From contig CAYURO010000018.1 of NCBI GenBank assembly GCA_964447285.1, positions 20,522 through 84,521 on the forward strand: a stretch of 64,000 bases of DNA. The letters are read 5' to 3'. Of the stretch, positions 5,283 through 41,834 are shown in pieces. Under the pieces are notes generated by a model. The model ran no database searches. It was not told the DNA's origin and worked only from the letters and a program-made list of their open reading frames with translations. Source of the DNA: an uncultured Enterobacteriaceae bacterium. Lineage in GTDB: Bacteria; Myxococcota_A; UBA9042. The stretch's first letter is position 1, and every line of letters starts with the position of its first letter. The position numbers and the translations under genes were made by a program.

Positions 5283-6407
5283 ATGCGATCGACCCCTTGG
5301 ACAACCTGTGTCGCCCTGTGCGCCTTGGTCACCGGACTTGGCGGGTGCCTCTCGAACACGTACGAGGTGCCGCGCGACGAGCTGCAGCGCCTGATCAGCC
5401 TGCCGGGAGATCAGCGCGGCGGCAACGTGCGCGCCGTCCAACGCTTCGGAACTGCGGATGATCCGCCTGCCGCGCCGCCGTGGTCGGGCCAGGGAGCTCC
5501 CTACGGTATGCAGCAGGGCGTGGCTCCCGGCGTGTACATGGGGCCCTACTTCTATCCCTACGGTGCTCCCTACCACCATCCCGTCGTTGTGGATTACGGT
5601 TACAATACGCCAGGTTCCTCTTCGTACGAGCCGACCGGCGCCCCTTCCGTCCCCGGTTCAGGTCAGGCCCAGGCGGCTGCCGGACGCGGGGACGCCAAGG
5701 AGGCGATTGCTGCCGTCGTCGCCGTCGCCGTCGTCGTGGGCGTCTCGCTGGCGGTGACCGAGGGCGCGCGCTATGACGGGGCGGTGGCGGTGCATCCCAA
5801 GCATCCCGTGCACTTGATGGGGCCGGGCTATCAGCACGAGGTCGTGGCTTTGGACGAGCTGGGGCCGCAGCACCTGCGCGACGACTGGGACGCGGTCATC
5901 GCGGGCGGCGAAGGGGCCGGGCTGTGGCGTCGCGGTCGGCGGCCGCTGGACCGCGAGGGGATGACGTACCAGATGGGCTTCGGGTCCTCGGCAGCGTCTC
6001 TGTCCGACGCAACTGAGGTGGGCGGTGGCATGGGAGAGCTGCAGATCGGCTACTTCCCCAATCAGTACACAGGCTTGATGATGAATGGTGCGTATTCCTC
6101 GGGCATCGCGCACGGCGGCGACTTCGTGTCGTGGCGCGTCGGCTTTGAGGGCAAGTGGTACCCGATCGAGATCCTGCGCTTGCACCTGGGTGGCTATGGC
6201 GGGTTCGGTCAGGAGTGGCTCAGGGCCGGCTCCGGACTGCCAGAGACCGACACCTCGCGCCCGTACGTGGGGTACGGCGGTCTGCTGGAGTTCGACCTGA
6301 CGACGCGGCTGTCGCTGACGCTGAAGGTGGGCGCGCAGTGGCTGCCGACGCTGCACCTGCAGGACCGCACGACGCCCACGCTGGCATTCGGCCTCGCAGT
6401 CTACTGA
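5283..6407 (+). CDS. Hypothetical lipoprotein or outer-membrane protein with a Tyr/Pro/Gly-rich N-terminal region and a beta-strand-like C-terminus
   Basis: GGAGG Shine-Dalgarno six nt upstream of the ATG. Lipobox LVTGLGGC. C-terminal alternating-hydrophobicity Gly-rich strands ending in an aromatic residue (GLAVY). Confidence 0.5.
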   Translation: MRSTPWTTCVALCALVTGLGGCLSNTYEVPRDELQRLISLPGDQRGGNVRAVQRFGTADDPPAAPPWSGQGAPYGMQQGVAPGVYMGPYFYPYGAPYHHPVVVDYGYNTPGSSSYEPTGAPSVPGSGQAQAAAGRGDAKEAIAAVVAVAVVVGVSLAVTEGARYDGAVAVHPKHPVHLMGPGYQHEVVALDELGPQHLRDDWDAVIAGGEGAGLWRRGRRPLDREGMTYQMGFGSSAASLSDATEVGGGMGELQIGYFPNQYTGLMMNGAYSSGIAHGGDFVSWRVGFEGKWYPIEILRLHLGGYGGFGQEWLRAGSGLPETDTSRPYVGYGGLLEFDLTTRLSLTLKVGAQWLPTLHLQDRTTPTLAFGLAVY

Positions 6408-25461: not shown

Positions 25462-25566
25462 CCTGCATCCGACGGTGCCCAATCGTACTCCTACCCCCCC
25501 ATGCCGTTTGGGTCTAAGCTTCGGCATTCCACTGCGACCGTTGGGCCGCCCACCTTGGGGGACGTC

Positions 25567-27726
25567 ATGACGCCTGCTTGCACGACCATGTTCCGCACAC
25601 TTCGACGGGTTGCGTTGGGCGTTCTTGCGCCGCTGCTGCTGCCGACACTTGCGTCTGCCGCAGTGCCGACCACCGTGCTGCTCGAGGGGACGCTGCAGGC
25701 GACGGGCGGCGGTCCGGCGGCGGACGGCAAGTATCTGCTGAATCTGGCGATCTATCCCGATGCGCTGGGTGGTCAGGCGGCGTGGAGCGAGCAGGGCGCT
25801 GAAGCGTCGGTTCAGGGCGGCTTGTTCAGTCTCGCCATGGGCGCAAAGGTCCCGCTGAAGCCCGAGCTGCTGGCGGCGCTGTCCAAAGCCTATCTGGGCG
25901 TGACCGTGCAGCCGGACCCCGAGCTACCGCGGGTGCCGGTACACGCCGTTCTGTACGCGTTGCGCGCTGGCGTGGCGACGGGGATCGACTGTTCCGGCTG
26001 CATCCAGACCGCGCATCTGGATCCGCAGGTGTTGGCCCCTTATGCCAAGTCGGCCGATCTGGCGGCCTATGCCAAGACCGCGTCGTTGGCCACGGTCGCG
26101 ACCTCGGGGGCCTTCGCTGACCTGTCGGGCGGCCCGGACCTGAGTGCCTATGCGAAGACGGCCTCGCTGGCGACGGTTGCGACATCCGGCACATACGCAG
26201 ACTTGGAGGGATTGCCGACCCTTGCCAAGCTGGGCATCGCCTGCGGGACCGGCTTGGTGGTGCGCGGACTGAAGGCAGACGGCAGCTACGACTGCGTGCA
26301 GGCGATGGACCCCTTGGCGCTGCCCAAGGATGCGCTCGACGAGGTCTCGAACGGCCTGTTGACCAACCAGTTCAACGAGGTCGCCGCCAGCACGAAACTC
26401 GTCCCCATCCCCGACAACAGCCCCGTCGGCATCAGTGACGTGATCGACGTGCCGGACTTCGGCACTGCCCAGACGTTCAGCGTAGCCGCCGAGATCGCCA
26501 ACAGCGACACCGGAAATCTGCGGATCACGCTCATCGACCCCACCGGCACCAAGTTCGTCCTGTGGGACAAGACGGCCAAGGGCACCATCGTCAAGACGAC
26601 GTGGCCCACCCCGACCAAGACGGTGTCCGGCGACTTGAGTACATGGATCGGCAAGAACCCTAAGGGAAAGTGGTACTTAGAGGTAATTGACGTCGCCTTC
26701 TTGAACAACGGCTTCGACGGTGCCCTGAAGGGGTGGAGCCTGAACATCGGCGTCATGTCGTCTGCCAAGGTCGGGTTGGCTGGTCTGCTGAAGCTGCAGA
26801 ACGCCGCCGAGGCCCCGCTTCCGTGCGGTCCGACACTGGCCGGTTCGCTGTACTTCGACACAGTGGCCAAGGCCGTGCGCTATTGCGACGGGGCGGCTTG
26901 GCGCAACTTGGCCGACACGTGCGGCAACGGCATTCTCGACGCCACCGAGCAGTGTGACGACGGCAACAACACCGATGGCGACGGCTGCTCGGCCACCTGC
27001 CAGACCGTGTGCGGCGACGGCAAGTTGCTGGGCAAGGAAGAGTGCGACGACGGCAACACCAAGGATGGCGACGGCTGCAGCGCGGCGTGCATCGCGTCGG
27101 TCGGTTTCTCGAAGGTGCGACCGGGCGCCTCGTGCGCTGCCATCCTCGCTGCGTGGACCAGTGCGGGCTGGACGGCCAAGGACGGCAAGTACTGGCTCGA
27201 CCCGAATCTGGGCGACCCAGCCGACGCGTTCCTGGCGACCTGCGACATGACGCAGAAGGGCGGTGGCTGGACCAAGGTCAGCGAGTTCGCCGAGACGTAC
27301 TACGACAACCTCAGCGACCGCAGCAAGATCCCGTACAAGGAAGTGCTGGTCCTCGAGTGGGACCACACCACCGCGACCCCCGTCTACTCGAACTTTGTGG
27401 TCCAGCACGCCTGCTACAACTCGGCCAAGACCGGCTTCCAGGTTGCCAACACATCGGCGAACTGCGACTCGGGCTATCAGGTCCGGGTCGGTGGCACGGG
27501 CGGTTCGTGCGGCGACGCCGAGGACGGCTGCTTTGGCTTGTACTACGGCGACTTGGCCGTTGGCGGCGGGTGCAACTGGAACTGCGGCGCGGGTGCCGTG
27601 AAGATCTGGGGCAAGGGCTACGCCTGCAATTCGTGCCGCTGCCGCAACGCGCCATACACGACAATCGAAGGCTGCGGCAACGGCGGTGCGTGGGGCAACA
27701 AGCGCTTCTGGATCTACGTGCGCTAA
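25567..27726 (+). CDS. Secreted multidomain protein: signal peptide - conserved N-terminal domain - ~24-aa tandem repeats - P-like (proprotein convertase P) domain - two Myxococcus Cys-rich repeats - fibrinogen-related domain
   Basis: Signal peptide LLLPTLASAA. Repeats DLAAYAKTASLATVATSGAFADLSGGPDLSAY. P-domain-like GKNPKGKWYLEVIDVAFLNNGFDGALKGWSLNI. CGNGILDATEQCDDGNNTDGDGCSATC occurs twice. CDMTQKGGGWT is a fibrinogen C-terminal-domain hallmark. Confidence 0.7.
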   Translation: MTPACTTMFRTLRRVALGVLAPLLLPTLASAAVPTTVLLEGTLQATGGGPAADGKYLLNLAIYPDALGGQAAWSEQGAEASVQGGLFSLAMGAKVPLKPELLAALSKAYLGVTVQPDPELPRVPVHAVLYALRAGVATGIDCSGCIQTAHLDPQVLAPYAKSADLAAYAKTASLATVATSGAFADLSGGPDLSAYAKTASLATVATSGTYADLEGLPTLAKLGIACGTGLVVRGLKADGSYDCVQAMDPLALPKDALDEVSNGLLTNQFNEVAASTKLVPIPDNSPVGISDVIDVPDFGTAQTFSVAAEIANSDTGNLRITLIDPTGTKFVLWDKTAKGTIVKTTWPTPTKTVSGDLSTWIGKNPKGKWYLEVIDVAFLNNGFDGALKGWSLNIGVMSSAKVGLAGLLKLQNAAEAPLPCGPTLAGSLYFDTVAKAVRYCDGAAWRNLADTCGNGILDATEQCDDGNNTDGDGCSATCQTVCGDGKLLGKEECDDGNTKDGDGCSAACIASVGFSKVRPGASCAAILAAWTSAGWTAKDGKYWLDPNLGDPADAFLATCDMTQKGGGWTKVSEFAETYYDNLSDRSKIPYKEVLVLEWDHTTATPVYSNFVVQHACYNSAKTGFQVANTSANCDSGYQVRVGGTGGSCGDAEDGCFGLYYGDLAVGGGCNWNCGAGAVKIWGKGYACNSCRCRNAPYTTIEGCGNGGAWGNKRFWIYVR

Positions 27727-28665: not shown

Positions 28666-28783
28666 CGTGTTCACCCCGGACGCCAAGGTCGCACCGCCGC
28701 CCGCCGACGTGGTACACCTGACCGGTCGGCGACCCACCATGGCCGGCCGGCCGCCCCCCCGTTTCCCCCGCACGGAGGTACAA

Positions 28784-30379
28784 GTGTCGACCTTCCTTTC
28801 GACCCGCCGCTGTTCGTTCATCGTCTTCCTTTCGCTACTTGCAGTGTCGGCCGGCTGCGGCTCGAGCTCGGGCGCAGGGGGCTACTACTACATTCCCGTG
28901 GATGCGGCGGACGGCACCGGATCCGACGGCAGCGACGCCGCCAATCCCGACGCCAACCCGGCCGATGCGAAGACCGACACGGTGGCCGACGTCACCGCCG
29001 ACGCGACCGACCTGGACGCCACCGAGACCCTCGACACGGTCGACGCCACCGACGTCCCGGACGGCACCGACACGACCGATGTCCCCGACACGACAGACGT
29101 CTTCGACACCACGGACACCACCGAGGTGCAAGACACGACCGATGCCGTCGACACCACCGACGTCGTGGACACCACCGACACGACCGACACGATGGACGTC
29201 CCCGACACGACCGACACGATGGACGTCCCCGACACCACCGACACGTCCGACACGACCGACGCCGCGGACACGACCGACACGACCGACGGCGTCGTGGGAC
29301 CTGCCTGCGCCCCCACGCCGAATATCGCCGGTCTGCTGCAGTGCCCCGAGGGCAAGGTCGACGTGACGCTGAAGGCCGCGACCGTCACCTACGTGTTCAA
29401 TGCCGGCTACTTCCTGGCCGACGAGAGCACCACCCACGGCATCGAGGTCTACGTCGGCACCACCTGGACGTACCCCAAGCCGGTCGTGGGCGACCGCGTC
29501 GACTTGCACCTGACCGAGTGGGGCAACTGGAAGAACCAGCAGGAGATCACGGCGGCCGACGCGCCCGTGGCCTTGGGCGTGGGCAACCCGGCCGTGTTCA
29601 AGCTGGACCTGCAGTCGCCCGGATCCGCCGGCGTGCTGGCCGAGACCCACGAGAGCCGCGAGGTGGGGGGCACGGGCCTGAAGGTGCTGACGGTGGCCGG
29701 CGCGGACCTGACCGTTGCGTCCAACGTGCTGCCCAACATGGTGTTTCGCGTCGACGGCACCAGCACTTTGTGCAAGGGAGCGGTCTTCGAGCTGAAGTCG
29801 GCCGTCATCACCCAATTCGGCGAGATCTATCGTGTGCAATTGATGAACGGTGCAGCAGACTTGGGCACCATCGATATCTCGGGCTGCACGCCTGACCCGA
29901 TCGACGAGACGCAGAACTGGGGCTTCGAAGACCTGGCCGCCACCGACCCGCCGGCGGGTTTCGTCAAGCTGACCGGTCTGTTCTCGGCCCTGCGCACCAC
30001 GACCGTCGCCCACGCCGGCGCGGCGTCTTGCGAACTGATCTGGACCTCGGACGCCAACCAGGACTTTACCACCGGCGCCTATGCCGAGATCCTGCCCGGC
30101 GACACGGTCAAATTCAGCTTCTGGGTGCTGGACGAGGATGTGGCGGGCCGTGTGCGGCCGGGGCTGCTGTTCTACAAGGCCGACAAGACGTTCTTGAAGT
30201 CAGAGTATGCCACGGGGTACTCGGTCGACGCGGCGGGGGTGTGGAACCAGCTCGCGCATACCTTCGTCGCTCCGGCCGACGCCGCGTTCGTGCGCGGGCA
30301 GGTGCGGATGTACGACGTGGCGCCCTTCCCGGGGTCGGCCAAGGTGCGCATCGACGACTGGAGCATCGGCAAGCAGTAG
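28784..30379 (+). CDS. Secreted lipoprotein with a long acidic Thr/Asp-rich linker and a C-terminal globular domain
   Basis: GGAGG Shine-Dalgarno then a GTG start. Lipobox AVSAGC. About 120 aa of TDTTDV-type low complexity. No family motif recognised in the C-terminal domain. Confidence 0.55.
   Translation: MSTFLSTRRCSFIVFLSLLAVSAGCGSSSGAGGYYYIPVDAADGTGSDGSDAANPDANPADAKTDTVADVTADATDLDATETLDTVDATDVPDGTDTTDVPDTTDVFDTTDTTEVQDTTDAVDTTDVVDTTDTTDTMDVPDTTDTMDVPDTTDTSDTTDAADTTDTTDGVVGPACAPTPNIAGLLQCPEGKVDVTLKAATVTYVFNAGYFLADESTTHGIEVYVGTTWTYPKPVVGDRVDLHLTEWGNWKNQQEITAADAPVALGVGNPAVFKLDLQSPGSAGVLAETHESREVGGTGLKVLTVAGADLTVASNVLPNMVFRVDGTSTLCKGAVFELKSAVITQFGEIYRVQLMNGAADLGTIDISGCTPDPIDETQNWGFEDLAATDPPAGFVKLTGLFSALRTTTVAHAGAASCELIWTSDANQDFTTGAYAEILPGDTVKFSFWVLDEDVAGRVRPGLLFYKADKTFLKSEYATGYSVDAAGVWNQLAHTFVAPADAAFVRGQVRMYDVAPFPGSAKVRIDDWSIGKQ
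28900..29300. repeat. Degenerate DNA repeats (gacaccaccgac / gacacgaccgat) encoding the D/T-rich linker
   Basis: Visible iterations of gacacgaccgacacgatggacgtccccgacac and similar units. They generate antisense ORFs rich in Ser/Val. Confidence 0.8.
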
Positions 30380-30411
30380 ACGGCAAGCGGACTTGCGTCG
30401 CGCATCCGATG

Positions 30412-31509
30412 TCACGCGCCCTTGCCCCCGCGGTCGCGCTCGCCCTTCTTCCAGCGGCGAATCTCGCGTGAGAGGTCCTTCTCCGAGGCCTTGCGCTCTT
30501 GGGCCTGCCGTTGGGCAAAGCGCGCGTCGGCCATCGCGACCTCGTCTCGCAGCGCCAGCCACGACTCCAGGCGAACCGCCGGCAATTCCCCTGACTCGAC
30601 GGCCAGTTCCAGTGCGCAGCCCGGGTCGCCGCGGTGGCCGCAGTCGCGGAATCGGCAACCCGACGCCAGCGCCTCGACGTCGGCAAAGGTCGCCGCCACG
30701 CCCGCCTCGGCGTCTACCAGTCCGAACTCGCGCATGCCGGGCGTGTCGATCAGCAGCAGCCCGTCGGGTCCCGGCAGCAGCTGTCGGCGCGTCGTGGCGT
30801 GCCGCCCGGTGTCGTCCGAGTCGCGCACCGGCAGCGTGGGCTGCACGTCGTCGCCCAGCAAGCGGTTGATCAGGGTCGACTTGCCCACGCCCGACGACCC
30901 GGCAAAGGCCACCGTGGCGTGGGGGGGGAGCACCGCGCGCAGGGCGTCGAGGCCACCCGACACCACCGCGCTGGTCAGGACCACCGGCACGCCTGGGACG
31001 GCTTCTTCGAGCTCGGCGCGCACCGCCACCGGGTCGTGGGCGCGGTCTGCTTTCGAGACGATCACGACGGCCTGGGCACCCCCCGCAAGCGCCGCGCTGA
31101 CGTACCGCTGCACCCGCCGGGCCGAGAAGTCCTCGCCCAACGCGGTCACCACCAACACGACGTCCACGTTGGCCGCGACAAGCTGGGGGGCGCTGGCCCG
31201 ACCCGGCGCCTTGCGCGCGAACATGCTGTGGCGGGGCAGCAACTGCTCGGCCACGTCGTCCAACCCCAGGCGCCGACACGCGATCCAATCGCCGACGGCC
31301 AGCGCGGGGTCCAGCCGCAGGACCAGCTTGCGTGGCTCCCACGGGTCGGGTGGCAATCCCAGGACCCGCACGCTGCCGCGGTCGACCGCGCACACCCGGG
31401 CGGGCAGCAGGTCGGGGGCGCCCAGGTCGTTCAGCGCGGCCGTCAGGCGCGGGGACCAACCCAGGGCAGTCAGGGCAAGGGGCATCGTCGGGGGGGATTC
31501 GGCAGCCAT
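30412..31509 (-). CDS. rsgA: Ribosome small-subunit-dependent GTPase A (RsgA/YjeQ)
   Basis: Circularly permuted GTPase order: G4-like VVLVVTALGEDF, then G1 GSSGVGKSTLINRL, then DTPG. C-terminal zinc motif CRFRDCGHRGDPGC. Confidence 0.85.
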   Translation of the reverse strand: MAAESPPTMPLALTALGWSPRLTAALNDLGAPDLLPARVCAVDRGSVRVLGLPPDPWEPRKLVLRLDPALAVGDWIACRRLGLDDVAEQLLPRHSMFARKAPGRASAPQLVAANVDVVLVVTALGEDFSARRVQRYVSAALAGGAQAVVIVSKADRAHDPVAVRAELEEAVPGVPVVLTSAVVSGGLDALRAVLPPHATVAFAGSSGVGKSTLINRLLGDDVQPTLPVRDSDDTGRHATTRRQLLPGPDGLLLIDTPGMREFGLVDAEAGVAATFADVEALASGCRFRDCGHRGDPGCALELAVESGELPAVRLESWLALRDEVAMADARFAQRQAQERKASEKDLSREIRRWKKGERDRGGKGA

Positions 31510-31594
31510 GGCGCGACGCTACGAATGCCCGCGGCGCTCGTCAACCCGGGTCGCCTCTGCAAGACCGCCCGCCGGACCCGGGGCAGGGCAGCCA

Positions 31595-31640
31595 AAACGC
31601 CGAAGGGGACCCCCGCCGCAGTCGGCAGGGGTCCCCTTCA
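31595..31640 (-). terminator. Intrinsic terminator downstream of the zincin gene
   Basis: On the minus strand: GGGGTCCCCTTC - loop - the plus-strand arm GAAGGGGACCCC forms a 12-bp GC-rich stem, followed by GGCGTTTTGG (T-run). Confidence 0.5.
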
Positions 31641-31663: not shown

Positions 31664-34600
31664 TCAGTAGATGCCCTTGGCGTTCGCACCGCCGAAGCCG
31701 TATGCGTCTACGGCCTCGCGCAGGTAGAACGGCACTTCGGTATACTGTCCCAGCTTCATGCACGCCTTGTTGTGCACGCACTTGCACCCGCTGTTGTCCG
31801 TGGCAGAGCAGCCCGCGATGGGGCCACCGTTCACGTTCTCCATCGAGGGGTCGTACTTCACCAGGGCCTCGCCGGTCTTGTCGCTGTAGACGGGCTCGTA
31901 CCAGTCGGGAATGCCGTCACCGTCCTGGTCGGGGCCGGGCGTCGTCTGGTAAGCGTCTTTCAGCAGCGAGTTGGCGTATTCGAGCACGCGCGCGGCGATG
32001 CCCTTCTCGACCGTGCGGCCGAAGATGGTCTCGCGGCCGATGCGCCGGGCGACGTAGATCTTGCCGATCGGGTTATGGAACTCGATGCGCGCCTTGATGC
32101 CCGGGTCGGAGTCCTTGCCGAGCTCCCAGATGCGCATCATGTCCATCCAGCCCTGCTGCGCGTTCTCTGGCAGGTACAGCATCGTCCAGGCGATCAGGAA
32201 CTTCTGCTGCTCCCAGCCCACCTGCGGGTCGACCACGGCCGTCTTGACGGGGGCCACGGCACCAAAGGGCTTGTCGTCGGTCGAGCCATAGGTCGTGCAG
32301 ACGGTGCTGTTCTGCGCCGGGAAGCAACTGGTGGGCTGCATGCCGAACCACGTCGTCCAGCCAAAGCCCATCGTCGGGAACTTCTGGGTGTCGATCAGCG
32401 GCTTGCCGTTGGCGCCGGCGGCAAGGCGCGGGCCCTTCAGGAAGTCGTCGCCGGTCAGTTGGTTGGCAAGCAGGCGGCGGAAGCCGTCCGGGAAGAGGTC
32501 TGCCAGCGAGGCTGAGCGGTAGCGAGCGTCGACGAAGTCGCCGAGGGACGAGCTGATGAAGTTGTCGACCGATTCGGTCATCAGCATCGAGATGTACATC
32601 TTGTCGTAGTACGAACCCGCATTCAGCGTGTACTGCGAGTCGTACTCGCCCTTGTCGCTGGCCAGTTGGTTCTCGACCGGGCGACCGCCGTAGGTGACCT
32701 GACCGAAGTAGCCCGTTGCGCCATTCGGAACGACTACCGTGACGGTCGCCGGCGAGCTGCTCATCTTCGATTCCATCGACCTCAGCACGCCATTCGCGGC
32801 GTCGGCGAAGTGCTCGCCTGCCTCTGGACGCGCCAACTGCTTGGCGAAGTGGTCAAACACGATACCCGAGGCCAGCACGTTGTCGGGGAAGAACGACTTG
32901 GCGGCATAGGCCCACAGCTCGTCCGGATCCGCGCCCACTTCAAGCGCGACGTCCCGGTAGATATTGCGGTACAGGGCCAAGCCCTTGGCGCCGTCGCGCA
33001 GCTTCTCGTTGAAGCGGGTCAGCGCGCGGTTCGCGGCGCCGCGGACCGAGAAGCTCTTTCGGCCGCGACGGTAGTTGTCGAAGATGTGGCCTACTTCCTG
33101 CTGGGTGATCATGAACCCGAAGATCTCGTAGGGATCCGCACCGTTATCGTGGCGGTACACGCTCAGGTTGCCCAGGTCGGCCCAGTTGTCGGTCGCGAAG
33201 CCATAGGGCACACGCTGGCGCTTCTGGGGGTCCACAGCAACGCCACCGCGGTAACCGCCCGTCGGCAGTTCGTTCGTCGCCGGCGCGCGCAGGCTGGTCC
33301 AGGGCACGTAATCGACCTTCTGCTGGCGGCAGCGGGTGTATCTCTCGTCAATCTTGACGATCAGGCCGTCGAGCAGGGGCGAGAAGGAACCGTCGGTCGC
33401 CTCGTTCCAGCGCGCCGGCTTGAACTTCAGGGGGTCGACCTCTTGGCAGTCCTTGATCAACTCGAAGCCCGTGTTCAGCGCCGAGTAATGGATGTCTTTG
33501 GACCCAAGGCTGAAAGTCAGGCCGAGGATGCCACCGAAGTTGTCGGTCTTGCCCAGCATGGCCTTGCCGCGTGGTGTGCCGGCCTTGTAGGTGTCGTCGG
33601 CGTACACGGCCACCGAGTCGCCGTACAGCATGCGCGTCGCGGCAAAGTCGTACACGCCAAGACCCAGGAAGTCCTGAGTGGTCTCGCCGGCATAGTCCAT
33701 GATCGACGACTGCTGCCACATCCAGATCAGGTTGTCGCGCTCCTCCTTGGTCACCGGGTCGAAGTAGCGCGGGCCGACGCACGTCGAGCCGTCGGGAGCC
33801 AGCGCCTTGCAGTCGGTCTTGACCTTGCCGTTCTTGGTGCGGAGCTGCCAGTACTGCGGGCGGAAGCCGGTCGCGTCGGAGGAGCTGATGAAGTTGTGGC
33901 GCAGACCGATGCTGTGTCCCATTTCGTGCGCGATGACCGCGTAGTGGGCGCGGCGAGCGACGTAGTCGCGCATCTTCTCTGCGCGCGCCTGCTGAACTTC
34001 CGGCGGCTGGGTCGGGTCGAACTGGCCAAACTTCTCCTGCAGCACGTCTGCAAGGCCGGCGATGCTCAGCGGTGCCTCAGCCATCTGCATGATGCACATG
34101 CCCCGCTCGGCCAGGGCGGTCTCCTTCATGCGGCGCAACTCGCGCTGAACCGCCGGGTTGCCGCCACGCAGCGGCGAGGCGATGTCCAACACGGCCTGGC
34201 CCAGCGGCATCCCCACCATGCCGGCAAGCACCTGGACGGCGGGCGTGATCAGCGAGGCCTCGAACAGCGTTCCCATCGCCATCTGGCGGCGGGCGGCGTA
34301 GGTGGGCGCCATGGCCGAAGCGACCTTTGCGGAGGCGGTCACTTCCTTCAACTGATGCTTCAGGTCCACGGCGGCCTGAACCGCTTCGGGGTGCTGCTGC
34401 TCGAAGGCGGCGGCACGCTCGGCGTTCATGTCGATGCCTTCAGACTGGGCGGTGCGCGCGTTGAATTCTTCAGCCGTCAGGCGGGGAAGCAGGCCGTTGG
34501 CAGAGGCGGCACGGGCGGCCTCGGACCAGTCTTTGATGTACTTGCCCTCGGTGATGCTCTCGGCCTTCAGCTCGCCAGCGATATAGCGAGCCTGGTCGAC

Positions 34601-36559
34601 GACGCCCTGACTCCAGAGGTCGTTGACGTACGTCCACGCGTTGATGCTGGCGGCGATGGTCTCGCCAGTCAGCGGGTCGTTCGAGTCGACCATGATGCCC
34701 CAGGGCGACGGCGTCTGCGGTTCGGGAAGGCCATTGACCTGGTGGTAGCGCAGGTCGCCGCGGCGGACGTTCAGGGCCTTGGCGCACACCGCCAGCGTCT
34801 CGGTGTCGCCGTCGACGCGGGCCGTCTCGCACTTGTCCGCGGTCCAGCCGATCGGCAGGCGCTCGGCCGTCTTGGCGCACCCGATGGGGTCGCCCAGCTC
34901 GACGGGGCTGTGGCACAGGACGATCATCTCGGGCATCTTCGCGATCGCCTTGACGCCGTCGGTATAGCCGCGCTCTGTCCCCACCGTGTCGGCCAGGTTC
35001 TGGCACAGCAGCTCGTTGCGACCCAACTGCGCGTAAGCACGGCTGTTGCGGCAGTCGTCGACTTCCATCGCCAGCGCGACGGCATCACCGTTGTCGTCCT
35101 GCTGGCCGTCGTACACAGGGAACTGCGTATCGCACTTGGCGTACTCGGCAACCAGGTCCACCGCGGCCCCGCCGTCGGGAACAGTGGCGCTCGCTCTGGC
35201 TTGGGCAACGCGCTTGCACTCACCGAGCTGCGACGACCGGATGGCGACGCGCAGGGCGATGTCCCATTCGTGGGTGGCCTGCTCCGTGGCCTCGAAGTAC
35301 TTCAGGTTGCTGCCACCGGTGTAGTACCACGCGACCGGCTTGGCCAGGCGCTGGGTCAAGGGCAGGGTGCAGCGCTGCTTGAACGTGTCGCAACGAGATC
35401 CGTTGCCAACGGAAGCGCACTCGTCTTCGGTGCCGTCCTGGTTCAGGTCGCGGTGCGGGTCCTGGCCATACTTGGTGGTCTCGGGGGTATAGCAGGCGAC
35501 CGGACCGCCCTTGGGGTCCTGGAACGTCGTGGGCGTCGAGGTCGGCTTGCCGCTGGCGTCCAGCTTGTAGTACGCGTGGCTCTGCTCCCAGATGTTGTAA
35601 TAGTTCAAGAAGCGGTACCACTTGGCGTCGGTCATGCCGTAGTTGCGCGTGTATCCCGACCGCTCGGTGGTGAAGCCGCCAAACGCCTGAAAGCGAAAGC
35701 CGTCCCAGTCGCGGGGTTCGAAGTCGGTGACCACGACGCGGCGGAAGGCATGGCGGACGGTGAGCTCGATGGGGTTGCACGAGCCCGCGGGCGCGGTGCC
35801 GCCGGCAAAGTCGGCCTCGAGGAAGCAGGCAGGGAACGTGTCGATGCCCCAGCCCAGGTGGCTGAGATCGACGACGCCCGGCTTGGCGAACGCCTTGCTG
35901 GTGATGTCGAAGTAGCTGTTGTCTTTGGCGAAGTACGGGGCATTCGGGTCGTTCGGGTCCTGGACGTTGTACGCCATGGGCTCGTACTGCACGCCGCCGT
36001 AGATGCCGACCATCGACAGGGTGTCGAAGTCGTAGCTATCCACGTTCTGGTTCTTCGACCAGTCGATCCGCATGTGGGTGCGCTGGTACCAAGGGCGGTC
36101 GTAGTTGTTCTCCTCGAGGATGTTCATCTCCTCGCCCGTGGTGGAGTTGTACGACCGCTTGATGTCGAAGTGCGACTCGATGCGGAACGCGCAGACGATC
36201 ACGCCGTCCTGCGTCGCCTTGCCCAGGCCCTTGCCGTCCGAGCCCTCGATGCGCTCGTAGGCGAGGCGGCCGATCAGCAGCCCTTCGGTGATCTGCCACT
36301 TGATACGCGACACCGGCTGCGCATAGGTCGACGTGAACAGGCCGTCCTGCGACGCGCCGTAGCCGACGTCGATCAGGGTGGCCTGCGCCCAGAATTCCGG
36401 GTCGTCAGCGGTGCTGACCAGGTCCTTGCCGACGAACAGGGTCTTGTCGAGCGCCCAGGGCTGGACGCGGTCGATCGGGGCACGCTCCTCGGCACAACTG
36501 GCGGAAAAGGCCGAAAGGGCGAGCAGCAGGAACAGGGGGGCGCGAAGGGCGCGGAACAT
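31664..36559 (-). CDS. Giant secreted or lipo-anchored zinc metalloprotease-like protein (HEXXH zincin), about 1632 aa
   Basis: Signal peptide with lipobox FSASC. Zincin motif VIAHEMGHSIGLRHNF near residue 1000. The rest resembles no family I can name. Confidence 0.7.
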   Translation of the reverse strand: MFRALRAPLFLLLALSAFSASCAEERAPIDRVQPWALDKTLFVGKDLVSTADDPEFWAQATLIDVGYGASQDGLFTSTYAQPVSRIKWQITEGLLIGRLAYERIEGSDGKGLGKATQDGVIVCAFRIESHFDIKRSYNSTTGEEMNILEENNYDRPWYQRTHMRIDWSKNQNVDSYDFDTLSMVGIYGGVQYEPMAYNVQDPNDPNAPYFAKDNSYFDITSKAFAKPGVVDLSHLGWGIDTFPACFLEADFAGGTAPAGSCNPIELTVRHAFRRVVVTDFEPRDWDGFRFQAFGGFTTERSGYTRNYGMTDAKWYRFLNYYNIWEQSHAYYKLDASGKPTSTPTTFQDPKGGPVACYTPETTKYGQDPHRDLNQDGTEDECASVGNGSRCDTFKQRCTLPLTQRLAKPVAWYYTGGSNLKYFEATEQATHEWDIALRVAIRSSQLGECKRVAQARASATVPDGGAAVDLVAEYAKCDTQFPVYDGQQDDNGDAVALAMEVDDCRNSRAYAQLGRNELLCQNLADTVGTERGYTDGVKAIAKMPEMIVLCHSPVELGDPIGCAKTAERLPIGWTADKCETARVDGDTETLAVCAKALNVRRGDLRYHQVNGLPEPQTPSPWGIMVDSNDPLTGETIAASINAWTYVNDLWSQGVVDQARYIAGELKAESITEGKYIKDWSEAARAASANGLLPRLTAEEFNARTAQSEGIDMNAERAAAFEQQHPEAVQAAVDLKHQLKEVTASAKVASAMAPTYAARRQMAMGTLFEASLITPAVQVLAGMVGMPLGQAVLDIASPLRGGNPAVQRELRRMKETALAERGMCIMQMAEAPLSIAGLADVLQEKFGQFDPTQPPEVQQARAEKMRDYVARRAHYAVIAHEMGHSIGLRHNFISSSDATGFRPQYWQLRTKNGKVKTDCKALAPDGSTCVGPRYFDPVTKEERDNLIWMWQQSSIMDYAGETTQDFLGLGVYDFAATRMLYGDSVAVYADDTYKAGTPRGKAMLGKTDNFGGILGLTFSLGSKDIHYSALNTGFELIKDCQEVDPLKFKPARWNEATDGSFSPLLDGLIVKIDERYTRCRQQKVDYVPWTSLRAPATNELPTGGYRGGVAVDPQKRQRVPYGFATDNWADLGNLSVYRHDNGADPYEIFGFMITQQEVGHIFDNYRRGRKSFSVRGAANRALTRFNEKLRDGAKGLALYRNIYRDVALEVGADPDELWAYAAKSFFPDNVLASGIVFDHFAKQLARPEAGEHFADAANGVLRSMESKMSSSPATVTVVVPNGATGYFGQVTYGGRPVENQLASDKGEYDSQYTLNAGSYYDKMYISMLMTESVDNFISSSLGDFVDARYRSASLADLFPDGFRRLLANQLTGDDFLKGPRLAAGANGKPLIDTQKFPTMGFGWTTWFGMQPTSCFPAQNSTVCTTYGSTDDKPFGAVAPVKTAVVDPQVGWEQQKFLIAWTMLYLPENAQQGWMDMMRIWELGKDSDPGIKARIEFHNPIGKIYVARRIGRETIFGRTVEKGIAARVLEYANSLLKDAYQTTPGPDQDGDGIPDWYEPVYSDKTGEALVKYDPSMENVNGGPIAGCSATDNSGCKCVHNKACMKLGQYTEVPFYLREAVDAYGFGGANAKGIY

Positions 36560-36596
36560 CGAGGACCTCCCGGACGGGCGAGACGAAATGGCGGGG

Positions 36597-37637
36597 CTAG
36601 AAGAGCTCCGCGGGGGCGATCTGCAAATTGAGGTACAGATTCGTGAAACGATTGAAGAAAACCGATTGGTAGGTCGAATCTGGCGCGAGCTGGCTGTTGA
36701 CCGTCTGGGCGCCCAGCGACACATTCACCACATCCGTGATGTCCCACGACGCCTCGACCACGTAGACCATGGTCACGCGCTGCGACGGGTCGTTGGGGTC
36801 CGGCTCGACGGTGTAGGTCGTGCCTTTTGCGGTGCCGAGGGCGTAGAGCTGGTCGGCGTGCACTCCCGCGGTGCCGGTAACGGCCACGGACGATACGGGC
36901 GTCCACGTCGCGTTGGCCAAGCCGGTCCAGCGCCACTCGGGGTTGCGCAGGCCGGTGTGCGAGAACTGTGAGCAGCCGCTGGTCAAGTCGGCGCAACCCA
37001 CGACCCACGGCGAGTCGAGCTGGCCGGTCGTGTACTCGTGCGCCATGTAGGTGCCGCGGCCGGTCAACGACAGCTGCAGGCCCTGGCCGGCGAAGCGTGA
37101 GCTCCATGCGGCCGTGACGCCCAGCGACGGGGCAATGATGAGCGAGCGGGCTGCCGACGCCTTGCTGGTGGGCAGGTTCACGCCCAGGTCCGAGGACACC
37201 GACAGGCCGGTGGGGGTCACGGCGTCAGGCAACAAGATCGCATAGCGGGCGCCCAGTTGCGTGTCACCGACCATGGTCTCACCTTGGTAGGTGGTCCAGT
37301 CGCTCTGGGTCAACTCGCGCGAGAGGCTGCTGGATGCGTTGAAGCGCACGCGGCGGCTCAGGGTGTAGCGGACGGTGGCGCTCAGCGACATCTCGACGTT
37401 CGGATTCCAGGTCGGGTCCGCAGCCTTGTCCAGTCCGATCGCGAGGACGTCGGTTCGCAGGCTGACGTCGGAGCCGCGGAAGTTGGCCGCGATGCCGGGA
37501 TCGTCAACGGGCACCGCCACCGCCGTCACTGCATCCTCCGCCGCCGCCGAGGCGGGCCGAGCAAGCATTCCGATGAGGAGGAGCAGGAGGGGCAAGCTCA
37601 GGCAGGGAGAGCAGAGCGGACGAAGAGACCGTGGCAT
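36597..37637 (-). CDS. Outer-membrane beta-barrel protein, likely co-transcribed with the downstream zincin gene
   Basis: Signal peptide LLLLLIGMLARPASAAA. Alternating amphipathic strands. C-terminal ...IAPAELF with terminal Phe is a classic OMP signature. 37 bp upstream of the zincin start. Confidence 0.6.
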   Translation of the reverse strand: MPRSLRPLCSPCLSLPLLLLLIGMLARPASAAAEDAVTAVAVPVDDPGIAANFRGSDVSLRTDVLAIGLDKAADPTWNPNVEMSLSATVRYTLSRRVRFNASSSLSRELTQSDWTTYQGETMVGDTQLGARYAILLPDAVTPTGLSVSSDLGVNLPTSKASAARSLIIAPSLGVTAAWSSRFAGQGLQLSLTGRGTYMAHEYTTGQLDSPWVVGCADLTSGCSQFSHTGLRNPEWRWTGLANATWTPVSSVAVTGTAGVHADQLYALGTAKGTTYTVEPDPNDPSQRVTMVYVVEASWDITDVVNVSLGAQTVNSQLAPDSTYQSVFFNRFTNLYLNLQIAPAELF

Positions 37638-37879
37638 GTGGGGAACCGGGCCTTGGGAGCGGAGAAGAGCGACCACCCGTGCGGGGGCCGAGGGGCGCGT
37701 GTGGTAGTCTGCGCAACGCCGGGTGTCAATGCCGAACTCTGCGAGGAGTCATCTCCGGCCTGACCGCCCCCGTTCGCAGAGTGGACGGGCGGCCCCTTCG
37801 GCAACGCAGTGCGTCAATCGGCGAGCACCTAAAGGGGAAGGTGCAGGCGTGCGGAGTCGTGATCGTGTCGGCCAGCACT

Positions 37880-39455: not shown

Positions 39456-41738
39456 CTAGAGCGCCTTCGTGCACAGCGGCGTCTCGAGTGCGCCCATCTT
39501 GGCCGATACGATTGTGCGCGCCGAGATCGCGAACACGTAGTCGCCGAGGAAGACGCTGCGCTTGACCTCACTGGTGGAGAACATCCATGGGTCGGCGCAT
39601 CCCTTTGCGTACACCTCGTCGTTCGGGGTCACGAGCGGCAGGCCCCCGAGCTTCTGAAAGCCGTTGAAGGCCGTCACGTCGTACACGTACAGGCCGCTGA
39701 ACTCGAGGGGGTGTGTGGGTATGCCGGGGGTCGTGGCTCCGCACACGGTGGCTGGCAGCCCCAACCAGTGTCGGTTGCCGTCCCAGTTGAACGCCAGGTG
39801 GTCCGTGGCCGCCGCCGACGAGGACCCCTGAGTGCCGATGACTTCCGAGTGAAGCAGCTTGGGATTCGCGGGGGTAGCCACATCCACCAGCTGCAGTCGC
39901 AGGGCCGACCAACTCACCTGGCCAGCCGCGGCATCCGAGACTTCGAAGCCGAGCGTCAGCAACGTCCTTGGCGCGATGAACTGCATGTACGTGGCGAACC
40001 CCGGGACCTTCAGCTGCCCCACTTCTTTGGGGTGGGTCTTGTCCGTCAGATCGATCACCAGCAGCGGCGCGGTCTTGTCCGCCGTCGACAGGTAGGCGGT
40101 CTTGTCGTCGAACCGCACGGAGCGGATGTCCTGACCCTTCACCAGCCCCGTCAGCGCGCCGACGGTGGCCAGCAGGTCGTTCCCCGCCTGTTCCATGACG
40201 TACAGGTGATTCTCGACTGCGGGGGCGGGCATCTTGCCCAGCGTGGTGGCAAGGCGGAGGTTGTCGCCGGACTCGCTCATCGAGAACTCATTCAGCACCA
40301 GACCTTTCACGACGCCGGAACCCATGTAAGTCGTCGTCACGCCGGTCGCCGGAAGGCTGAAGCGGTGGAGGCTGGTGGCATGTTGACTCGCATCGCCCTC
40401 CCAGTACCAACTCTCGTTCGGCTGCCGATAGTGCCGCTGGGCGATGTAGATCGACTTGGCCGTGGCGTAGACCGCACCCGGGCGGCCCAGCACCGTGCGC
40501 ATCGACAGCGGCTCGTCGTTGGTCAGGTCGAAAGACAGCAGGCCGATCAGGTTCTGGCCATCGCCCTCTTGCCCCAAGAGGAAGCCTCCACAGTCCCCGA
40601 ATAGCGCGGCGTCTGTCTTCGGCGTGCCGACCAAGTCGCGTTGGTCGATGACGGACGGAAACAAGCCGGTCAGGTCCAACTGCTGGATCACCTTCTCGTT
40701 CTTGGCCTTCAACAGCTCGTAGGCTTCGGCCACCTGATGGGCAGAGTAGGGGTAGACCGCGCCGCTCGAGCTGCACGCCTCTTCCCACGGCAGCAGCTGC
40801 TTGGGCCGCATGTCGTACTTGTCGGCCGCGAGCTGCGGAAACACCACGACCGTATGCACCACGTTGCCGATCAGACGGGCAGACAGAAACGTGCCCGTGA
40901 TGCCGGTCTTGCGCACCGGAACCGGAGCTTTGCGATTGGTGATGTCCAGCACGGTGATGTCGAGCGAGTAGGCGTCGCCCGTGAAGTCGCAGTCGTAGCC
41001 GTAGGTGCACGCATCAGTGCCGTCCTGCCACCCGCCACCGGCGTCCATGCCCGCGTTGGGACTCAGCAATTGCAGCGGGTACTTGGACTCGAAGACGACC
41101 GCGTAGTCGCCCTGGACAAACAGGCGGCGCGGGATTCCGTCGAACGCGTGGGAACCGACCTCCTGAATGTCGGCGGGCGAGGACACGTCGAAGATCCGCA
41201 GCTTCTTGTCGGCCAATAGATACAGGTACTTGTCGTCGTACTTCAGGAAATCGGCTTCTTCGACTTGGGGCGGCCCCGCAGCGGCAGCCTGCTCGCCATT
41301 CGCGGGTGAGTCGTTGATGTCCGATTTCGGTGTGTCGAGGGTGTCGCCTGTCCCGGACATCGTCTCGCCCGCCTGCGCATCGACCGGGGATCCGCCGCCG
41401 TCGGTCCCCCATCGCGACCCGCAGCCAAGCTCCGCCTGCCAGAGCGCGCGTTGCTTCTGCACCTCGACTTCAGCAGCCATGGTCGTCACGATGCGGTCCC
41501 GGACGGTGTCCATCACTTCGCCGCACCCCTTGGCTTCCACCAGACGCGCCAGCGTTTCGCCGTACGTAGGTGTGTGGGGCGGGGGCGTCCAGACGTAGCC
41601 GGTGGTGTCCCCAACGGCGTCGCCGGACATGAAGACGCGGCGAGTCTCGTCCTTGCAACCTGTGGCGAGCACGGCAGCAAACAGGAACAGCAGCCCGGTG
41701 GAGCGCAGGACGGCAGAGCGAAACCGGCGGCGGGGCAT
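39456..41738 (-). CDS. Secreted lipoprotein with a beta-propeller domain (PF09826-like)
   Basis: Lipobox LATGC. Conserved C-terminal block IRSVRFDDKTAYLSTADKTAPLLVIDLTDKTHPKEVGQLKVPGFATYMQFIAP matches the beta-propeller domain family found in secreted archaeal and bacterial proteins. Confidence 0.6.
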   Translation of the reverse strand: MPRRRFRSAVLRSTGLLFLFAAVLATGCKDETRRVFMSGDAVGDTTGYVWTPPPHTPTYGETLARLVEAKGCGEVMDTVRDRIVTTMAAEVEVQKQRALWQAELGCGSRWGTDGGGSPVDAQAGETMSGTGDTLDTPKSDINDSPANGEQAAAAGPPQVEEADFLKYDDKYLYLLADKKLRIFDVSSPADIQEVGSHAFDGIPRRLFVQGDYAVVFESKYPLQLLSPNAGMDAGGGWQDGTDACTYGYDCDFTGDAYSLDITVLDITNRKAPVPVRKTGITGTFLSARLIGNVVHTVVVFPQLAADKYDMRPKQLLPWEEACSSSGAVYPYSAHQVAEAYELLKAKNEKVIQQLDLTGLFPSVIDQRDLVGTPKTDAALFGDCGGFLLGQEGDGQNLIGLLSFDLTNDEPLSMRTVLGRPGAVYATAKSIYIAQRHYRQPNESWYWEGDASQHATSLHRFSLPATGVTTTYMGSGVVKGLVLNEFSMSESGDNLRLATTLGKMPAPAVENHLYVMEQAGNDLLATVGALTGLVKGQDIRSVRFDDKTAYLSTADKTAPLLVIDLTDKTHPKEVGQLKVPGFATYMQFIAPRTLLTLGFEVSDAAAGQVSWSALRLQLVDVATPANPKLLHSEVIGTQGSSSAAATDHLAFNWDGNRHWLGLPATVCGATTPGIPTHPLEFSGLYVYDVTAFNGFQKLGGLPLVTPNDEVYAKGCADPWMFSTSEVKRSVFLGDYVFAISARTIVSAKMGALETPLCTKAL

Positions 41739-41834
41739 TGCAAACCTCCTCGACAACACGTCCATCCTGCGCCATGAACGGACCTACGCCAAGCAGTTCT
41801 GGGGCCGCTGGACCCCGACCGAGAGGCTGCACCG

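Follow-up and report, generated by a model that had tools for sequence, protein, structure and literature searches.

Why should the gene for a giant predicted protease stand directly behind the gene for an outer-membrane barrel, and what does the one protein do for the other? The locus that raises this question lies in a stretch of 64,000 nucleotides (nt), called the window below, from an uncultured bacterium placed in Myxococcota_A (assembly GCA_964447285.1, contig CAYURO010000018.1, positions 20,522 to 84,521; G+C content ~67%). It consists of two adjoining genes on the minus strand: the barrel gene (36597-37637), which is the upstream one, and a gene for a very large lipoprotein (31664-36559), whose ATG follows the barrel stop codon after 37 nt. 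A first-pass annotation of the sequence had seen here a surface protease or toxin with a dedicated outer-membrane protein, in the manner of surface-lipoprotein export or a two-partner-like system. The reading that we favour, with a probability of roughly 0.45, is that the barrel is a specific uptake channel paired with a protease, the one cleaving protein and the other importing the products ('digest and import'). We prefer a specific uptake channel to a lipoprotein export device because a subclade of homologous barrels that is linked to a symporter keeps every invariant loop residue of the family.

The large protein and the barrel

At its longest reading, the large open reading frame (ORF) spans 31664-36724 (1686 codons) and runs into the upstream barrel gene. 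We chose the ATG at 36559 (MFRALRAPLFLLLALSAFSASC...) because this start fits the homologues and has GGGAGG seven bases before it, and because the longest reading overlaps the barrel gene. The large protein, with its stop codon at 31664-31666, has in consequence 1631 amino acids and not the 1632 first counted; homologue P0001, which is 96% identical to it, has the same length. Residue numbers in our alignments are one higher than those given here, as the alignment reference was one codon too long. The barrel gene encodes 346 amino acids from the ATG at 37637, ending in ...APAELF, and its length, its C-terminal Phe and the 37-nt spacing, all reported before, agree with the coordinates and the translation. 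The case for the reality of both genes rests on their homologues, not on ORF length. An antisense ORF of 1321 codons (32666-36631, plus strand) lies over the protease gene; we rejected it as a second gene, since high-GC genes commonly leave such a frame open on the antisense strand.

A word-indexed search with the large protein found at least 867 homologues, the top 120 of which are 55-96% identical over the full length of ~1600 amino acids, and the mean column identity over the ~1600 residues of the alignment is 59%. An exhaustive profile search with residues 544-1631 gave 1426 clusters at 50% identity, 310 of them below 1e-30. Looking up the clusters yielded neither names nor taxa. The homologues come from Myxococcota, 'Deltaproteobacteria' metagenome-assembled genomes and Sorangium, and their source names are all 'hypothetical protein'. 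There is also a paralogue type of ~1250 amino acids, which shares the lipidated N-terminus, the N-terminal domain (38% identity) and residues 544 onward (23%). This type lacks a Cys-rich insert found at about residues 340-543 of the window protein (34931-35542, minus strand), and BLASTP against a 1241-residue paralogue skips that part.

The region around the insert (residues ~320-543; 34931-35600) is the most variable compared with homologue P0002, with 42-80% amino-acid identity as against 90-100% in residues 1-300, and the neighbouring barrel is 96-98% identical between close relatives in which these protease residues diverge. DNA identity to the related locus L005 is 0.67-0.80 in the insert. 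When the window is compared with a relative that is 80% identical, DNA identity is highest, at 90-94%, in the barrel gene together with the opening ~220 codons of the protease, and lowest, at 67%, in codons 321-420. A mosaic or recombination tract was considered for this last comparison and not accepted, as identity in the flanks swings as widely (75-98%).

The signal peptide and lipobox of the large protein, up to the invariant Cys22 that would be lipidated, are encoded at 36494-36559 (minus strand) and lead into a conserved CAEERxP[IV][DN]RVQP sequence. The window lipobox, F-S-A-S-C, has a weak -3 position, and homologues carry LAGC, VSGC, LAAC and similar sequences. The invariant Cys and these canonical L-A-G-C lipoboxes bear out the earlier proposal that the large protein is a lipoprotein, as predicted from its sequence. 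Position +2 is Ala in 100 of 110 homologues, position +5 is Arg in all 110, and position +7 in the window protein is Pro. In M. xanthus lipoproteins, Lys at +2 marks the inner membrane and Ala at +7 the matrix (PMC3222651). Because it has Ala at +2 and Pro at +7, the large protein would be an outer-membrane lipoprotein if the M. xanthus sorting rule carries over to this lineage. A further 25 Cys are invariant in the alignment, which would fit an oxidising compartment. At the other end, the last residues (31667-31690) form a [KR]-G-[IV]-[YFW] motif that is conserved among homologues P0001-P0120: 109 of the 120 have it, with an aromatic residue in the final or penultimate place. Such an ending is unusual for a lipoprotein and may be a recognition signal.

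The zinc-binding motif HEMGHSIGLRH (His878, Glu879, His882 and His888; 33896-33928, minus strand, verified by translation) presents the metzincin signature HExxHxxGxxH at residues 878-888. Its HEXXH, at residues 878-882, is the only one in the protein, as had been stated, but does not lie near residue 1000, where it had been placed. A probable Met-turn, SIMDY (Met954 and Tyr956; 33692-33706, minus strand), occurs 66 residues past the third His; its fit to a Met-turn is judged by sequence pattern, and a helix comes after it in the AlphaFold2 model. The His, Glu, His, Gly and His of the zinc motif and the whole of SIMDY are invariant in alignments of 32, 47 and 120 homologues. The AlphaFold2 model of residues 22-1199 (predicted template modelling score (pTM) 0.80; mean predicted local distance difference test score (pLDDT) 76.7) contains a beta-rich N-terminal region, a confident mixed region, a less confident helical stretch and the long HEXXH helix, and the predicted structure around the HEXXH places it among metzincins. 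By both motif and modelled fold, the catalytic domain is a predicted metzincin.

Beyond this site, the Pfam scan of the large protein returned only DUF4953 (PF16313, 'Met-zincin'), with a score of 25.8 bits (cut-off 24.2), and the match is confined to profile positions 6-36 (31 of 316), which is the zinc-motif stretch only. The same holds in paralogues, and distant full-length members have this motif-level match only or none. The NCBIfam scan gave nothing meaningful; HMMER searches of PDB sequences with the protein, with a 32-sequence profile and with the catalytic segment alone gave nothing significant; and Foldseek against the PDB gave no match at E <=0.001. The Pfam and NCBIfam scans and the PDB sequence searches are in line with the first impression that the zincin site is the only family signature. 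The ~1400 accessory residues around the metzincin domain have no detectable structural or sequence relative. Classical metzincins (snapalysin, matrix metalloproteinases, astacins, serralysins and adamalysins) are among the closest known systems. The closest named relatives of the catalytic domain are DUF4953 and EcxA, and the likeness goes no further than the zinc helix and the general fold; PF16313 is the family that InterPro ties to the zinc-binding domain of EcxA, the protease of the E. coli AB5 toxin EcxAB (PDB 4L6T). A HMMER search with the large-protein family profile found neither EcxA nor any other PDB chain, and the literature searched contained no papers on DUF4953, PF16313, DUF5117 or DUF5118.

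EcxA, the protease subunit of an AB5 toxin, is one of the three best fold matches to the large protein, and myxobacteria are predators; both points would suit an effector of predation or competition that leaves the cell, for instance by way of outer-membrane vesicles. We consider such a toxin very improbable. The large protein is five to six times larger than EcxA, is apparently lipidated and has no B-subunit partner; it carries a lipid anchor instead of a secretion tag; and no immunity-like gene, secretion-system gene or toxin-delivery-domain gene was found nearby. Its conservation is very high, without the rapid diversification usual for effectors, and full-length identities of 55-65% across the family sit poorly with the toxin that had been suggested.

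The barrel protein has a signal peptide and, before the first strand, a short or low-complexity linker. In the window protein the linker is short, at ~20 residues, and the barrel starts at about residue 53, whereas homologues P0124-P0126, P0128, P0130, P0131 and P0141 have Ala/Pro-rich low-complexity linkers of up to ~100 residues between signal peptide and first strand (alignment A3, columns 60-190). Pfam scans (E up to 0.1) and NCBIfam scans gave no family for the barrel protein. The AlphaFold2 model (pTM 0.70) has 12 strands; the turns at the end where the termini lie are short, and the loops at the opposite end are long. The signal peptide, the closed antiparallel barrel of the model and its short periplasmic turns are those of an outer-membrane barrel. 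The folds that match it best belong to small channels for solutes or for secretion, at 9-13% identity, autotransporter barrels and FapF included. The 12-stranded prediction and the fold matches to outer-membrane channels uphold the earlier call of an outer-membrane beta-barrel, and the upstream protein is, on its model, a 12-stranded outer-membrane beta-barrel of no described family. The C-terminal Phe is not family-wide; many homologues run on for 4-12 residues past the last strand.

Conservation in the barrel was counted over 69 non-redundant homologues. Positions conserved in >=80% of them make up 25% of the predicted external loops, 5% of the strands and 0% of the periplasmic turns, and most of the 19 invariant residues have charged or polar side chains. 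The COG4313 channel (4RL8), the acidic-sugar porins KdgM and NanC, and FapF are likewise 12-stranded (identity 9-13%); unlike these, the barrel has no Pfam family, and five of its six loops are long and conserved, one of them, loop 4, with a nearly invariant Cys pair that we read as a probable disulfide. Generic porins show the opposite pattern of conservation. The conserved external loops of this barrel must do something specific.

Pairing across genomes and barrels without a protease

Ninety-two protease loci were drawn from genome and metagenome collections (a genome-collection scan with a single query sequence returned 12 loci), and their six-frame ORFs were searched with a hidden Markov model of the barrel; 74 loci were informative. 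A barrel gene lies directly upstream of the protease gene, on the same strand, in 47-48 of the 74 (gaps of -3 to 154 nt), and directly downstream in four (gaps of 11 to 637 nt). The adjacency is far beyond chance and holds through changes of gene order: the outer-membrane protein and the zincin form a conserved pair and are not chance neighbours. The other 22 loci have no barrel near the protease; most of these belong to more distant proteases, and at locus level they include that of a complete Sorangium genome. Clustering of the flanking ORFs in the barrel-less loci revealed no consistent alternative partner. Tandem protease-barrel-protease arrays occur at L050:3-8875 and L055:1793-10482, and at L019:148-2526 the main protease copy has a paralogue of 27% identity immediately upstream, in the opposite orientation. 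A mirror-tree test of protease segments against the barrel gave an overall r of 0.17, with barrel distances near saturation. Both families are uncharacterised, and we found no description of their pairing.

One way to explain the adjacency is that the barrel is dedicated to carrying the lipoprotein to the cell surface or keeping it there, whether as a trans-acting autotransporter-like partner, as a threading partner like that of RcsF and OmpA, or as a functional analogue of Slam. The genes are often overlapping or nearly so, with the barrel gene usually first; in the tandem arrays each protease copy has its own barrel, located between the copies; the barrel fold is matched best by, among others, autotransporter barrels and the amyloid exporter FapF; and the lipoprotein is conserved to a striking degree in its N-terminal CAEERxPIxRVQP and its C-terminal [KR]G[IV][YFW], both of which could serve as signals for recognition.

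A reverse survey of the neighbours of eleven different barrel proteins found that five adjoin the ~1250-residue protease type (one of them the cut L097 gene), two adjoin the 1600-residue type and one stands alone. Each of the remaining three (P0128, P0130 and P0131) is followed, after 2-38 nt, by a gene for a full-length Na+/glutamate symporter (PF03616, E ~1e-101, 368 of 368 model positions), at L098:6501-8997, L101:6501-8967 and L102:286-2678, and no protease gene was found within 6.5 kb of them. These symporter-linked barrels retain all 19 invariant residues of the family, and in a neighbour-joining tree without support values they nest within the family, beside the clade of the window barrel. 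The invariant loops are therefore intrinsic to the barrel's own role and do not serve to dock the protease. For an outer-membrane barrel in translational coupling with a glutamate importer of the inner membrane, the simplest function is that of a solute channel. In the same tree the window barrel, whose partner is of the 1600-residue type, clusters with barrels of the ~1250-residue type, and thus partners have been exchanged. At L098 and L101, the barrel-symporter pair comes after a ccoG/FixH/FixI/FixS-like cluster.

Set against these results, export or anchoring of the lipoprotein by the barrel appears unlikely to us. Barrels with all the invariant loop residues pair with the symporter or stand alone, the barrel phylogeny does not follow protease type, and 22 of the 74 protease loci, Sorangium included, do without a nearby barrel; with so many barrel-less loci, a symporter-linked subclade and an orphan, 'dedicated' was too strong a word. 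A folded protein with ~25 conserved Cys cannot fit the lumen of a 12-stranded barrel, the periplasmic turns of which are short and unconserved, with no periplasmic domain, and the Pfam scan found no Slam (DUF560), POTRA or two-partner secretion (TPS) signature. Pairs of Slam and surface lipoprotein (type XI; PMC9090332) have in common with our locus that the barrel gene adjoins the lipoprotein gene. Slam, however, combines a 14-stranded DUF560 barrel with a TPR domain, which is N-terminal and lies in the periplasm, and the barrel described here has 12 strands, no DUF560 and no periplasmic domain. Two-partner secretion (type Vb) uses a TpsB of the Omp85 type, which has 16 strands and POTRA domains, and a TpsA that carries a TPS domain, none of which is present, and classical autotransporters (type Va) have passenger and 12-stranded barrel in one polypeptide, whereas here they are separate genes 37 nt apart. 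The likeness to autotransporters is one of barrel fold only, without any autotransporter Pfam match. For Slam-like export, or for the two-partner-like system proposed by the first-pass annotation, there is no support: the strand number, the lack of POTRA, TPR and DUF560 domains and the persistence of the conserved loops without a protease do not fit either. A variant in which barrel and lipoprotein form a stable surface complex, the barrel being needed for display, would make the pair a Slam-independent surface-lipoprotein system of Myxococcota, in which the ~1400 accessory residues would be new substrate-capture domains feeding the channel; we regard this combination as decidedly unlikely.

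A different explanation leaves the protease facing the periplasm, as an enzyme of envelope maintenance or quality control that acts on outer-membrane proteins, lipoproteins or cell-wall-linked proteins, with the barrel as its membrane partner or regulated substrate, as LptD is for BepA. Strong purifying selection over the whole length, a wide distribution with mostly one copy per locus, as for a core function, and a neighbourhood that besides the barrel is not conserved, as for housekeeping genes, would all agree with this, and default Lol sorting would, if the M. xanthus rule is extrapolated, leave the lipoprotein on the periplasmic face of the outer membrane. Conservation in the barrel, however, is on the predicted external side and not in the periplasm, the barrel-symporter operons point to solute transport, and no similarity of the protease to M48/BepA or other envelope proteases was found past the generic zincin helix. 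We give this explanation a small chance.

On the digest-and-import reading, a metzincin endopeptidase with an intact active site would be tethered to the outer membrane by its N-terminal lipid anchor, its ~1400 accessory residues stabilised by many disulfides, and would cleave polypeptides there. The conserved, polar and partly disulfide-bonded external loops of the barrel would form a solute-specific channel, through which the small molecules left by proteolysis, either amino acids (glutamate, for instance) or very short peptides, would cross the outer membrane. Both genes would be co-transcribed from a promoter upstream of the barrel gene, with termination at a hairpin after the protease gene. 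Catalytic activity, substrate, the membrane face of the protease and the cargo of the barrel are inferred. A similar logic is found in KdgM, NanC and ChiP, specific porins whose genes accompany those of enzymes that make their substrates. The module is then a metzincin lipoprotein and a hydrolase/specific-channel operon, both of known kinds.

Several points weigh against this reading. The cargo of the barrel and the surface exposure of the protease both rest on inference, and we know of no surface route in this lineage for a disulfide-rich lipoprotein of 1631 residues. If the protease faces the periplasm, it could not digest prey protein outside the cell, and the model becomes one of import followed by processing. 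Conservation as high as a mean column identity of 59% is not what a nutritional exoprotease usually shows, and it suggests that many contacts are constrained. A stoichiometric physical complex would account equally well for the tight gaps and the overlap of stop and start codons. The symporter-linked cases amount to three contigs of one subclade, two of them syntenic, and the tree that places them is a simple neighbour-joining tree without support values.

Myxobacteria live by digesting other microbes and macromolecules, and how the products pass their outer membrane is poorly known. The protease-barrel module occurs widely in the phylum, where annotations call it no more than hypothetical. 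In it, a very large and highly conserved protease is joined to a new family of small barrels that is coupled elsewhere to a glutamate importer. If the digest-and-import reading is true, the module would provide an uptake route from protease to outer-membrane channel to inner-membrane symporter, and would define two new protein families, one of them with ~1400 residues without a known fold.

Operon ends and surrounding genes

The presumed operon promoter lies in the intergenic region upstream of the barrel gene (37638-37879, minus strand), a gap of 242 nt after the stop codon of an upstream ORF of 300 amino acids. The gap contains TTGACA at 37729-37724; a sigma-70 consensus scan called no site. 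At loci of the ~1250-residue protease type, the barrel gene is repeatedly preceded, at a distance of ~170-190 nt, by an ORF of 93-96 amino acids that has no Pfam family (L002:694-984, L097:6054-6335 and positions 5519-5809 of the P0124 record); the window has no equivalent.

Past the stop codon of the large gene is a terminator-like hairpin (31601-31640, minus strand) with a perfect, GC-rich stem of 18 bp (arms 31640-31623 and 31618-31601) and a 4-nt loop, followed by GCGUUUUGG. The 91-nt terminator region folds at -57.5 kcal/mol (z = -5.5 compared with shuffled sequences). A simple consensus terminator scan did not call this hairpin, because the U-tract behind it (GCGUUUUGG) is weak, with only four U. 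The hairpin is kept in the related loci L005 and L006, with neutral or wobble changes, and at 45 of 72 homologous loci the hairpin after the stop codon is at least 5 kcal/mol stronger than in coding controls, the sequences being unrelated. The large gene is therefore usually the last of its transcription unit. Of the strong terminator announced at first, the stem is indeed strong and recurs in the family, but the tail is poor.

Right past the hairpin, the window has a 2.9-kb segment (28668-31580) that is absent from the close relatives L005 and L006, in which synteny picks up again at 28667. It holds an RsgA-type GTPase gene (30412-31509, minus strand) and an ORF of 392 amino acids without a family, and represents either an insertion in the window or a deletion in L005 and L006. 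Further out, two genes encode secreted-looking proteins: one of 741 amino acids (25501-27726, plus strand) with matches to a proprotein-convertase P-domain and DUF4215, and a beta-propeller protein (PF09826) of 769 amino acids (39456-41765, minus strand).

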